DNA from: an uncultured Christensenellaceae bacterium
GTDB taxonomy: Bacteria; Bacillota; Clostridia; Christensenellales; UBA3700
Direction: 5' to 3'
Assembly (NCBI GenBank): GCA_944381345.1
Contig: CALWKU010000049.1
Location: 1 to 48,887 of the forward strand
Length of the DNA stretch: 48,887 bases
The notes beneath the pieces were generated by a model that was given only the letters and a program-made list of their open reading frames with translations, did no database searches and was not told the DNA's origin. Position numbers and translations under genes: made by a program. Of this stretch, positions 43,033 through 45,706 are shown piece after piece (the stretch's first letter is position 1; each line of letters starts with the position of its first letter).

Positions 43033-43911
43033 ATGAAGAAATTGCTTGCGACTATCGCCGCGACAGCTTTGCTCATCACTCTTGCGGTCTCGGCGGTTTC
43101 TTGTGTGCACAGTCCCGACGAGGACAGCGTCATCGACTACGACGCGTTGGGCGAACCCGTCTTTGCAGACGACTTCGACGGCTTTGACGCGACGGTCTGG
43201 AAAGCCGCGAACGACGGCGTGCGCCGCGGAGGCTATTGGGATATGGGACAGATCGAAGCCGTGGACGGAAATCTCGTCATCACGACCGAGTATCTTGAGG
43301 ACGGCACGTTCGGCGCGGGGTGGTACACCGGCGCGATCGTCTCCGAACGCCGGTTTGAGGGCGGAGGATACTATGCCGAAGTGCGCTGCAAGCTGCCGGC
43401 AGGCGCGGGGCAATGGGGCGCGTTTTGGCTCAATTCGCCCGATATGACCGCCGACGGAAACGGCACGGAGATAGACGTCGTCGAGGGTGCGTATTACGAT
43501 GATCCGAAAATGGATGATAAGTACAAAGACACAGCGTTCCACACTATCCACGCGTTCGGCTACGGCGACGAACACGAGTCCAAACAGTCGCCCTACTACA
43601 AGGTCGAAAGAGGGATCTATGACAGTTTCAATACCTACGGAGTCTACTGGGACGAGGACGGTTACAAGTTTTTCGTCAACGGAATGCTGACATGGGAGAC
43701 GGATTTCTGTCCGAGCGAAGCCGCCGAATATCTGGAGCTTTCGGTCGAGATCGCGGGCGCGTACGACAGCGCCGATCCGTCCAATCCCGACAACAAATAC
43801 ACTTGGGGAGGAGAGATCACGTCCAACGAGGGCGGTAAAGACTTTGTCTCCGAGTTCGTCATAGACTATGTCAAGGTCTACAAGACGGACGGTATCCCTT
43901 TTGTAAAGTAA
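43033..43911 (+). CDS. GH16 glycoside hydrolase, probable lipoprotein
   Basis: Signal peptide ending AVSC; WGAFWL; catalytic EIDVVE; IDYVKVY. Confidence 0.9.
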   Translation: MKKLLATIAATALLITLAVSAVSCVHSPDEDSVIDYDALGEPVFADDFDGFDATVWKAANDGVRRGGYWDMGQIEAVDGNLVITTEYLEDGTFGAGWYTGAIVSERRFEGGGYYAEVRCKLPAGAGQWGAFWLNSPDMTADGNGTEIDVVEGAYYDDPKMDDKYKDTAFHTIHAFGYGDEHESKQSPYYKVERGIYDSFNTYGVYWDEDGYKFFVNGMLTWETDFCPSEAAEYLELSVEIAGAYDSADPSNPDNKYTWGGEITSNEGGKDFVSEFVIDYVKVYKTDGIPFVK

Positions 43912-43917
43912 GAAGAT

Positions 43918-43954
43918 AAAAAACCGCCGCGGCAACGTCGCCGCGGCGGTTTTT
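43918..43954. terminator. Bidirectional terminator
   Basis: AAAAACCGCCGCGGC-aacgtc-GCCGCGGCGGTTTTT between convergent genes. Confidence 0.88.
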
Positions 43955-43958
43955 CGAA

Positions 43959-44366
43959 TTATTCCCTGTTTTCTTTCTCTTCGCTGCGCATTTGAGTTTC
44001 AATGCGCTCCTGTTTCTTTTTGACTGCTTCGGACGCCTTGTTGCACGCCTTGTTCATCAATATCGACACAACGATGATGATCGCTATCGTGATGAAGATC
44101 GCCAACACTCCTTTCCACATGATGTTGAGCGCGGCGATGACGTTGTCCTTGTCAAAGTGCAGATCGACGATGGAGTCGTCCTCGGAGGGAGCGGCGTCCT
44201 CGTCGGGGGTTTCACTCTCAGTCCCCTCGGCGGGAGTTTCGACGACCTCGTCGGCGGGAGCGCTATCTTCGGCGACCGCCGTTTGTCCGAACGCGAACAC
44301 GGTCAGCAGCACTATCAGGCACAACAGCGTGCCGGTGAATACCTTTTTCAAAACATTGCTTTTCAT
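43959..44366 (-). CDS. OadG-related small membrane subunit with N-terminal signal peptide and acidic linker
   Basis: GGAGGTG RBS; C-terminal ALNIMWKGVLAIFITIAIII helix of OadG type; directly downstream of oadB. Confidence 0.7.
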   Translation of the reverse strand: MKSNVLKKVFTGTLLCLIVLLTVFAFGQTAVAEDSAPADEVVETPAEGTESETPDEDAAPSEDDSIVDLHFDKDNVIAALNIMWKGVLAIFITIAIIIVVSILMNKACNKASEAVKKKQERIETQMRSEEKENRE

Positions 44367-44379
44367 ATCGCGCACCTCC

Positions 44380-45495
44380 TCAAGCGAGTACCAGACTGAT
44401 GATCAGTCCGCCCACGATCGCCGAAGCGATCTGACCCGAGACGTTGGCGCCTATCGCGTGCATCAACAGGTGGTTGGTTGGATCTTCTTTGAGTCCCATC
44501 TTTTGGATGACTCTCGCCGACATCGGGAAGGCGGAAATGCCAGCCGCGCCGATCATCGGGTTGATCTTCTTTTTGGAGAACAAATTCATCGCCTTGGCAA
44601 AGCCGACGCCCGCCGCGGTATCAAAGATGAACGCCAGAAGTCCGAGCGCGAGGATGAGCAAAGTCTCGACCTGCAGAAAGTCCTCGCCCCTCATCTGCGA
44701 CGCGATCGTGAGACCCAAAAGCAGAGTGATCAGGTTGGCAAGGATGTTTTGCGCAGTCTCGGACATCAATCTCAGCACGCCGCATTCGCGCAGCAGGTTG
44801 CCGAACATCAGGAATCCTACCAAAGCCAGCGACTTGGGAGCGATGAGTCCCGCGACCACCGTGACGACGATGGGGAAGAGTATCTTGGTAGTGCGCGACA
44901 CCTGAGTGGAATTGTATTCCATGCGGATGAGGCGCTCCTTCTTGGTCGTCATCAGTTTGACGACCGCGGGCTGTATGATCGGGACGAGCGCCATATACGA
45001 GTAGGCGACGATAGTGATCGGTCCGAGATATTTGCTGCCGAGAGCCTGCGCAACGACGATCGAGGTTGGCCCGTCCGCCGCGCCAATGATCGCGATGGAC
45101 GCCGCGTCGTTCAGCCCGAAGCCGACAAGCGTTGCGAGCAACAGCGTCATGAAGATGCCGAATTGCGCCGCGCCGCCCAGCAGGAACAGCTTGGGGTTGG
45201 AAAGCAACGGCCCGAAGTCTATCATCGCGCCTATGCCGATGAACAGCAATATAGGCATCGCTTCGGACGCGCCTATGCCTATGTCGAACAGCCAATCGAT
45301 GATGCCTATGCCTTCTTCCGAAGTGACGACGTTGGAAAGGGGGATATTGACAAGGATCGCGCCGAAGCCCATGGGCAACAAAAGCGACGGTTCCATGTCA
45401 AACTTGATCGCAAGAAAGATCAAAAGCCCGCCTATGACCCACATCACGACGTGATACCATTCGACCGCTTGGATTGTGTTGATCAAGAAATCCAT
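44380..45495 (-). CDS. oadB: Sodium ion-translocating decarboxylase beta subunit
   Basis: EPSLLLPMGFGAILVN, GIGAMIDFGP, AAQFGIF, IIGAADGPT, YSYMALVP, SAFPMSAR, GANVSGQI. Confidence 0.93.
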   Translation of the reverse strand: MDFLINTIQAVEWYHVVMWVIGGLLIFLAIKFDMEPSLLLPMGFGAILVNIPLSNVVTSEEGIGIIDWLFDIGIGASEAMPILLFIGIGAMIDFGPLLSNPKLFLLGGAAQFGIFMTLLLATLVGFGLNDAASIAIIGAADGPTSIVVAQALGSKYLGPITIVAYSYMALVPIIQPAVVKLMTTKKERLIRMEYNSTQVSRTTKILFPIVVTVVAGLIAPKSLALVGFLMFGNLLRECGVLRLMSETAQNILANLITLLLGLTIASQMRGEDFLQVETLLILALGLLAFIFDTAAGVGFAKAMNLFSKKKINPMIGAAGISAFPMSARVIQKMGLKEDPTNHLLMHAIGANVSGQIASAIVGGLIISLVLA

Positions 45496-45518
45496 ATCAT
45501 GCTCCTCTTATAGTTCTG

Positions 45519-45550
45519 AAAACCGCAGACCGACGTCGTCGATCCGCGGT
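45519..45550 (-). terminator. Leader terminator (riboswitch expression platform)
   Basis: Minus strand ACCGCGGAUCGAC-gac-GUCGGUCUGCGGU-UUUC, upstream of the oadB RBS; G.U pairs fit the minus strand. Confidence 0.8.
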
Positions 45551-45630
45551 CTCGTCATTTGAAATTAAACCGGAAGGCGATGCCTTCGTGTTAGCGGCTA
45601 ATTGCGCCATGCGCCGACTACTCCCCGCGA
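45544..45630 (-). ncRNA. yybP-ykoY-type (Mn2+-class) riboswitch aptamer, variant L3
   Basis: Minus strand UCGCGG-GGAGUA-GUC...GCUAACAC-GAAGGCaucGCCUUC-CGG...GAC-GAGA-CCGCGG: hallmark GGGGAGUAG and GAGACC ends, four stems. Confidence 0.8.
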
Positions 45631-45649
45631 GGTTTTCCTTTTCTTCAAT

Positions 45650-45679
45650 AGTATAAAATAACGCGAGCGTCAAAGTCAA
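45650..45679 (-). promoter_or_regulatory. sigma-A promoter of the riboswitch-oadB-oadG transcript
   Basis: Minus strand TTGACT-18 bp-TATACT. Confidence 0.7.
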
Positions 45680-45706
45680 CAATTTTTTATTGGGTGTGCG
45701 CTTGCG

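Follow-up and report, generated by a model that had tools for sequence, protein, structure and literature searches.

What does a gene pair resembling the beta and gamma subunits of a sodium-pumping decarboxylase do when it stands by itself behind a leader that looks like a metal-sensing riboswitch? The question is raised by a two-gene unit on the minus strand of a 48,887-nucleotide stretch of DNA, called the window below, from contig CALWKU010000049.1 of an uncultured Christensenellaceae bacterium (assembly GCA_944381345.1). The RNA in front of this unit very probably belongs to a known riboswitch class, the Mn2+-responsive yybP-ykoY class, in a compact form that is itself known. The new aspect looks to be the gene under control, a separate copy of a sodium-pump beta subunit that we call oadB', and the RNA type has already been described. 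A full-text literature search found no paper linking the yybP-ykoY or Mn riboswitch to oadB or to a decarboxylase beta subunit; the only paper containing both terms concerns the unrelated Na+-I class, and a 2026 preprint on Mn-riboswitch-like structures outside the Rfam model leaves the decarboxylase unmentioned. Taken as a whole, the locus is likely best explained as a compact Mn2+-class ON riboswitch that would govern an oadB'/gamma' pair for cation homeostasis. The fold and its conservation, the overlap with the terminator, the linked genes, and the protein differences are shown by the sequences; the ligand, the switching direction, and the job of the two proteins are inferred.

The elements of the unit are given here in the order of transcription (P, paired stem; L, loop; nt, nucleotides; aa, amino acids; the parts of the aptamer from P1 to P3.2 and the ribosome-binding site were read from the sequence).

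45679-45650, minus strand: promoter-like TTGACT-18-TATACT, sigma-70-like, with 10 of 12 consensus matches (a consensus match only)
45630-45544, minus strand: putative aptamer of the three-way-junction yybP-ykoY type, 87 nt, drawn from structure and covariation
45630-45625 and 45549-45544, minus strand: P1, UCGCGG with CCGCGG
45624-45619 and 45553-45550, minus strand: L1, GGAGUA and GAGA
45618-45616 and 45556-45554, minus strand: P1.2, GUC with GAC
45614-45604, minus strand: P2 hairpin, GCGC-AUG-GCGC
45603-45595 and 45572-45563, minus strand: P3 (P3.1), AAUUAGCCG with CGGUUUAAUU
45594-45588, minus strand: L3 bulge CUAACAC, 7 nt, with U45593 at the C40 position and A45592 at the A41 position
45587-45573, minus strand: P3.2 hairpin, GAAGGC-AUC-GCCUUC
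within 45630-45544, minus strand: joiner UCAAAU (UNAAA) replacing P4
45549-45519, minus strand: intrinsic terminator, the presumed expression platform, whose 5' arm CCGCGGAUCGAC takes in the 3' strand of P1, with UUUU after it
45508-45502, minus strand: ribosome-binding site AGAGGAG, 6 nt upstream of the oadB ATG
45495-44380, minus strand: oadB (oadB'), 371 aa, PF03977, 2e-149
44366-43959, minus strand: gamma-like open reading frame (ORF), 135 aa, PF04277 at 27.2 bits (cut-off 27)
43955-43918, minus strand: terminator ending the unit, a 17-pair stem with 10 G-C pairs, then a U run

A first-pass annotation of this DNA had placed the promoter, aptamer stems, terminator, ribosome-binding site, oadB, gamma gene, and second terminator on the minus strand, and all of them are present where it put them. 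Its drawing of the aptamer holds for the stems, each of which is in the sequence, but not for the hairpin that it labeled P4, which is P3.2, a true P4 being absent. The boundary that it gave for L3 also has to be moved, as the leading G of GCUAACAC pairs with C45572 and leaves the 7-nt bulge CUAACAC.

The structure of this leader is more than chance. By blastn, its core is conserved throughout the rest of the genus (14/14 genomes) and in two of the three genomes sampled from a second genus; in each of the 17 loci it lies directly before oadB, and a gamma-like ORF follows oadB in 16 of them. Across these 17 orthologous leaders, 99% of cells pair, five pairs change on both sides, and the covariation score is reached by none of 500 shuffles, while RNAalifold, unaided, returns the same fold. 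Model R1, which scores 82.8 bits at 45541-45634, was used to align 87 copies of the RNA, in which 23 of 26 pairs have changed on both sides and 96.3% of cells are paired, compared with 70.1% in shuffled alignments and 28 to 43% with slid partners; these pair counts are flattered, as the alignments concerned (A4 and A6, the 87 copies on R1 included) were fitted to the model. The GGAGUA of L1 is found in 87/87 copies and in 31/32 of a protein-anchored sample, and NAGA in the 3' part of L1, where the window reads GAGA, is found in 29/32 of that sample.

The RNA and its link to oadB extend well beyond the genus. Filtered genome-wide searches with R1 missed real copies, and their tallies are lower bounds: at least 29 of the 151 genomes of the order have matches, and the RNA is oadB-linked in other families too (L084-L087, L098, and L108). 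With the filters off, it was found on the short second oadB copies of three other genera in the family (12 of 13, at 47-70 bits), all 12 of which the filtered genome-wide search had missed. An alignment scan for short OadB proteins, with one genome per species, yielded 80 loci at 61-81% identity, mostly in gut Clostridia (Christensenellaceae, Oscillospiraceae, Lachnospiraceae, and Acutalibacteraceae). The RNA is present at 32 of these loci, 29 detected by R1 and three more by the broader model R2. The remaining 48 have no L1 motif in the leader position, and the 20 of them that were scanned against Rfam matched no family but tRNA and Gut-1. R1 also found second, weaker-scoring copies in genomes that carry the oadB-linked one. 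In the window's own genome, the second copy is a riboswitch of the compact type (C20:1-75, cut by the contig edge), with L3 GUCAACAUAC, directly before a gene for MntP (PF02659, 1.2e-55; the riboswitch and gene together span C20:1-704). A further R1 match in this genome, at C83:19459-19551 (20.9 bits), is without GGAGUA, lies before large unannotated ORFs, and is probably due to chance. Also, in one oadB-linked copy, L212:1277-1394, UNAAA gives way to an insert of 21 nt containing a small hairpin, which looks like a retained or regained P4, so that three-way and four-way forms would both occur before oadB'.

Which class does this RNA belong to? Its closest characterized relative is the mgtA riboswitch of Streptococcus pneumoniae, which Martin et al. 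(2019, PMC6649816) place in the yybP-ykoY class and describe as having a three-way junction. In that RNA, P4 is replaced by an invariant UNAAA, the 3' part of L1 has AGA, a terminator comes next, and L3 contains C49-A50, where A50 corresponds to A41 of Lactococcus lactis, whose N7 binds the Mn site. The window RNA shares with mgtA the three-way junction, UNAAA for P4, GGAGUA and AGA in the 5' and 3' parts of L1, an L3 bulge of 7 nt whose third position is the metal-binding A, the C-G pair in P3.1 above L3, the terminator directly after P1, and the ON logic of the design. A45592 was equated with A41/A50 through the SSRC10 consensus and the numbering given in PMC6649816. The consensus fold of the 17 orthologous leaders has no fourth hairpin, and the joiner, UCAAAU in the window, mostly takes the form U[G/U/C]AAA in copies linked to oadB or mntP. 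The two RNAs differ in that the window has U where mgtA has the invariant C49, precedes a gene for an OadB paralogue and not for a P-type ATPase, comes from an organism in another class of Firmicutes, and is known from sequence alone. The earlier identification of a yybP-ykoY-type aptamer is therefore upheld by this point-by-point match in architecture.

At the gathering threshold, the whole window matches no Rfam family, and at E<=10 the leader matches only SSRC10 (22.2 bits), apart from a chance microRNA match. RF00080 is built on a four-way-junction consensus; its L1 and L3 docking motifs are also in the window RNA, whereas the P4 hairpin is missing there and L3 reads CUAACAC instead of the consensus ACAUACU. 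Genome-wide, RF00080 finds nothing at the locus and no match above 7.9 bits anywhere in the genome. It gives 17.8-24.2 bits on oadB-linked copies of another genus and 21.6-30.3 bits, below threshold, on mntP-linked sister copies (10 of 17 loci, mostly over the P3/L3 segment GUCAACAUACUUG). The first-pass annotation had named the lack of a covariance-model hit as an outcome that would count against it, and RF00080 indeed gives no match at E<=10; we attribute this to a blind spot of the model, whose failure on the three-way-junction form is documented in PMC6649816.

SSRC10 (RF02617) aligns with the window over P3, L3, P3.2, the joiner, the 3' part of L1, and the terminator, and it reaches 30.8-41 bits on six oadB-linked relatives, against a gathering score of 56. 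Although it is filed as a small RNA ("Streptococcus sRNA 10") and not as a riboswitch, it lies upstream of a "putative calcium transporter" in Streptococcus pyogenes (PMC3675131), and it is therefore most likely the streptococcal form of the three-way-junction Mn riboswitch seen in the window. The Na+-I riboswitch (DUF1646 motif, RF03071) offers a different kind of likeness, as it is an ion-sensing ON riboswitch that sometimes stands before oxaloacetate decarboxylase (pycB) genes; nevertheless, it has an unrelated two-stem fold of 55 model positions and, according to White et al. (2022, PMC9337991), senses Na+. RF03071 (Sodium; cut-off 40.5 bits) has no match on the leader, and its best match in the genome, at 13.2 bits, lies elsewhere.

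How might the leader act on oadB'? A hairpin with a U run starts 0 to 3 nt after the invariant AGAC in 60 of the 67 oadB-linked copies, so that in those 60 the 3' strand of P1 doubles as the 5' arm of the hairpin. Among the other seven, one has a later U run that was picked by the rule although a 15-pair hairpin starts at AGAC, one has only a 3-pair stem, two lack a U-run hairpin by the rule, and three lack AGAC in the aligned stretch. The terminator in the window has 12 pairs plus UUUU by the same hairpin/U-run rule and 16 pairs in the fold of the whole leader, and when that leader is folded without ligand, the minimum-energy structure includes the terminator but lacks P1. From this competition between terminator and P1, the leader appears, with good confidence, to be designed as an ON switch, in agreement with the direction proposed by the first-pass annotation. 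At low metal, L1 and L3 would be undocked, the short P1 (four conserved pairs, six here) would be lost to the stronger terminator, and transcription would stop before oadB. A cation, most likely Mn2+, would bridge L1 (GGAGUA/AGA) and L3 (A45592) and hold P1; the terminator would then be blocked, and oadB' and its gamma-like partner would be made. Contigs from sequencing runs cover 43900-45700 only in fragments, and two of the runs are probably DNA; one exact 204-nt piece of a metatranscriptome contig falls inside oadB and bears on neither start, termination, nor read-through.

To compare L3 sequences, the 87 copies of the RNA were sorted by the gene that they precede. The copies were gathered partly by targeted sampling, and the following counts of genes and L3 types are not frequencies; 85 of the 87 were assigned to a transporter gene downstream.

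mntP, 37 copies: L3 is ACAUACU in 25 and ends in CAC in none of the 37
oadB, 35 copies: L3 ends in CAC in 28 (CUAACAC 12, UCAUCAC 7, GUAUCAC 3, GUAACAC 2, and four others once each), is ACAACCU in five, and is odd in two
P-type ATPase, 10 copies: L3 is mixed
Na_Ca_ex, 3 copies: L3 is mixed
185-aa ORF outside the four transporter classes, 2 copies (L054:132-223 and L055:1501-1592): L3 is ACAGCAC

The first-pass annotation had noted that L3 keeps its adenine, and this is so: A45592 is matched by A at position 3 in all oadB-linked copies (35/35 in the 87-copy set and 32/32 in the protein-anchored sample, 67/67 together). Position 2, the C40 of L. lactis, is U in 20/35 and C in 15/35 of the oadB-linked copies in the first set; in the protein-anchored sample, which consists of named genomes, it is C in 30/32 and U in 2/32. 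The commonest L3 in the latter sample, UCAAUAC (8/32), is the SSRC10 consensus UCaaUAC. The idea that the GCUA reading of L3 marks a special oadB-linked class or another ligand is accordingly not supported by the wider sample; by these alignments, GCUA is a trait of the window's lineage and not of oadB control generally. The oadB-linked L3 type and the ACAUACU-type L3 linked to mntP coexist in all 15 genomes of the genus, a notable case of two L3 flavors side by side in one cell. In one genome (G051), a riboswitch of the CAC type occurs twice, before oadB' (L087:1501-1595) and before an Na_Ca_ex gene (L111:1501-1593), a pairing that hints at a functional link between oadB' and the Na_Ca_ex transporter.

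We hold Mn2+ to be the most likely signal with moderate confidence, and several points weigh against so straightforward a reading of the RNA. The leader passes the gathering score of no Rfam family, and RF00080 (Manganese; cut-off 45 bits) is silent on its 311 nt at E<=10; the pair counts are, as said, flattered by fitting. The window has U45593 in place of C49/C40, which is invariant in streptococci (PMC6649816), and that paper reports an assay for the L3 C only in the double mutant C49A/A50U. One rival view is that the RNA does not sense a ligand at all and is a plain attenuator or, like SSRC10 in its original classification, a small RNA. Northern blots on which SSRC10 ran as a distinct small RNA (PMC3675131), and the lack of any Rfam riboswitch model that clears its threshold on the leader, would fit this view, yet a terminated riboswitch leader also resembles a small RNA on a blot. 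Moreover, invariant loops and covarying stems, directly before transporter genes in 85/87 copies, fit a cis-acting sensor, and the closest characterized relative was shown to be a metal-responsive ON switch (PMC6649816, in the part available), and we regard a plain attenuator or small RNA as very improbable. A better case can be made for a change of ligand, in which the L3 variant CUAACAC, with U at C40, would have shifted the aptamer to another cation such as Ca2+ or Na+, to which oadB' would answer. In vitro, the S. pneumoniae aptamer has a higher affinity for Ca2+ than for Mn2+ (PMC6649816), which makes Ca2+ a candidate as well, and Na+-I riboswitches are known upstream of oxaloacetate decarboxylase genes (PMC9337991). 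The U in 20/35 oadB-linked copies, the CAC ending in 28/35 of these against 0/37 mntP-linked copies, and the maintenance of both L3 types within one cell throughout the genus point the same way, as does the CAC-type L3 before genes for P-type ATPases (L088 and L100) and Na_Ca_ex (L111). However, the correlation of L3 with the gene is confounded by descent, L1 is unchanged, and RF03071 is unmatched both on the leader and at the locus in the genome-wide search. Since the adenine whose N7 serves the Mn2+-specific site is kept in 67/67 oadB-linked copies and most other such copies read UCA, with C at position 2 in 30/32 and the exact streptococcal L3 in 8/32 before the same gene, a new ligand is unlikely, and a shift of this kind through the L3 variant seems to us improbable.

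If Mn2+ is the signal, what would oadB' contribute? The protein is a clear OadB homologue, matching PF03977 at 497.8 bits (cut-off 31.6), TIGR01109 at 413.1 bits (cut-off 190.6), and the solved Salmonella beta subunit St-OadB (6IVA) at 9.4e-91. Both its beta fold and its Na+-site residues are those of the Salmonella oxaloacetate decarboxylase beta-gamma complex (6IVA/6IWW; Xu et al. 2020, PMC7274780). E40, D203, Y229, N373, G377, S382, R389, and N412, which according to PMC7274780 are required for Na+ binding, for folding, or for the decarboxylation of carboxybiotin, are kept in all riboswitch-linked copies that cover them. In contrast, Arg304 is present in 21/21 operon-type copies and in 0/22 riboswitch-linked copies (Leu in 16, the window included, Asn in four, and Ser in two), and N311 is lost in four of the 22. 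Arg304 lies on the cytoplasmic face, and R304A moderately inhibits the Salmonella enzyme (PMC7274780); the loss of Arg304 is a hint, not proof, as some 96 columns in all distinguish the riboswitch-linked from the operon-type copies. The Salmonella protein also has a periplasmic insertion (chain residues about 62-119) that oadB' lacks. A quick maximum-likelihood tree, built from 42 sequences after two truncated ones had been left out, has one very long branch (Shimodaira-Hasegawa-like approximate likelihood ratio test [SH-aLRT], 100), with the 21 riboswitch-linked copies on one side of it and the 21 operon-type copies on the other. The operon-type group was chosen by long open frames, and an operon setting was shown for the copy of the window's own genome only. 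As judged from this tree, the riboswitch-linked OadB is a distinct, deep paralogue.

The first-pass annotation had described a two-gene unit with no alpha or biotin-carrier gene, which is borne out in the window, where neither adjoins oadB' or the gamma gene; both are encoded elsewhere in the genome, on contig C80. That contig has a cluster at C80:13477-18727 of Carboxyl_trans, OAD_gamma, Biotin_lipoyl, OAD_beta, and HMGL-like+PYC_OADA genes, which keeps alive the reading of oadB' as part of an ordinary pump. The OadB encoded in this cluster has 510 aa and is 48% identical to oadB'. Two different carboxyltransferase genes of the cluster, Carboxyl_trans and HMGL-like+PYC_OADA, surround those for gamma, a separate biotin carrier, and the 510-aa beta subunit, and the C80 pump may accept two substrates. 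Among the short-OadB loci, none of the 32 with the riboswitch has a homologue of alpha, carrier, or carboxyltransferase encoded within 1.5 kb, compared with 5/48 of those without the RNA.

The gamma-like partner is reduced toward its C-terminal end. At least 49 of 55 loci have, behind oadB', a gamma-like ORF with a single helix; by a simple rule, the tail after this helix is 3-30 aa long, and it is at most 15 aa in 23/40 complete ORFs. Of 10 such ORFs that were checked, seven align below threshold and over no more than the first half of the OAD_gamma profile. The gamma protein in the window has an N-terminal hydrophobic segment, an acidic linker, an OAD_gamma helix (residues about 79-107), and a charged tail of 30 aa; it covers positions 3-55 of the 76 in PF04277, leaving 56-76 unmatched, and has no match in NCBIfam. 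The operon gamma from C80 covers positions 2-75, has an 84-aa tail, and contains ...EVVAVITAALTAYY..., which is absent from the tail of the window gamma. Deletion of the gamma tail in Salmonella severely reduced the co-purification of alpha (PMC7274780), and by comparison the window gamma is without the C-terminal part that would recruit alpha. Unlike the Salmonella system, then, the window unit has neither an alpha gene nor a gamma with an alpha-binding tail. The window gamma helix is predicted, as in Salmonella, to pack on beta: complex prediction scored its binding to oadB' at 0.61, compared with 0.00 for the best of three controls, and a score of 0.61 was reached by 58/80 solved complexes and 2/110 mismatched pairs. 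The runs agreed in at least 94% of contacts, with a predicted local distance difference test (pLDDT) value of at least 77 for the partner. The predicted binding may reflect no more than likeness to a similar complex that has been solved. Apart from these comparisons, the OAD_gamma helix of both gammas (window 43959-44366; C80:14894-15358) is preceded by an additional hydrophobic segment at the N terminus, where the operon gamma has a lipobox-like ...LAFAAAC..., and the long acidic linker of the window gamma was not found in its relatives.

These features bear on two accounts of the pair, which agree on the identity of the RNA. In one, oadB' and gamma' would simply provide the C80 decarboxylase with another beta-gamma module, an inducible one, through which an excess of Mn2+ would bring about more Na+ extrusion, for example, to drive Na+-coupled exchangers of divalent cations. 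The conserved residues listed above speak for such a module and thus against a separate role, as a working pump subunit would be expected to retain E40 together with D203, S382, and N412 of the Na+ site. The same is true of the full decarboxylase gene set in one C80 cluster, of the second, mostly longer OadB that accompanies oadB' in 15/15 genomes of the genus and in 5/5 from other families, and of the riboswitches before both oadB' and Na_Ca_ex in G051. Nevertheless, the window gamma stops at profile position 55 where the operon gamma continues to 75, gamma tails are at most 15 aa in more than half of the complete ORFs (23/40), removal of the tail in Salmonella weakens the hold on alpha, Arg304 is lost in 22/22 riboswitch-linked copies, and 0/32 riboswitch-bearing loci have a gene for alpha, carrier, or carboxyltransferase nearby. 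We consider a spare module for the C80 enzyme rather unlikely and lean, tentatively, toward an alpha-independent role in cation handling. Under this alpha-independent account, the pair would serve cation homeostasis under Mn2+ excess without a stably attached alpha subunit. A role in cation homeostasis is most likely because the same type of RNA controls MntP, P-type cation ATPases, and proteins of the Na+/Ca2+-exchanger family in this genome and in related ones. The stand-alone transporter that the first-pass annotation proposed is made more plausible, though not established, by the missing Arg304 and by a gamma without its tail; the alpha subunit encoded elsewhere in the genome keeps an ordinary pump in play. 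It is conceivable, at a similarly tentative level, that oadB' and gamma' represent a new family of alpha-independent cation transporters derived from the beta-gamma core of a decarboxylase, in the form of an Mn2+-switched exporter or exchanger of divalent cations; the cation would be Mn2+, moved perhaps against Na+ or H+.

The decarboxylase beta subunit has so far been known only as part of a biotin-dependent pump. A subfamily with a kept ion site, a lost Arg304, a tail-less gamma, and a metal riboswitch would point to an unrecognized transporter function, and the link to the riboswitch offers a handle on the function of oadB' by way of metal tolerance and transport. Public RNA models also have a blind spot, in that the three-way-junction form escapes RF00080 and SSRC10 carries the label of a small RNA; the Mn2+ regulons of gut Clostridia are therefore under-annotated. 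If the reading of oadB'/gamma' as an Mn2+-switched transporter is true, the pair would be a fourth kind of efflux system under the Mn2+ riboswitch, beside MntP, TerC-type proteins, and P-type ATPases.

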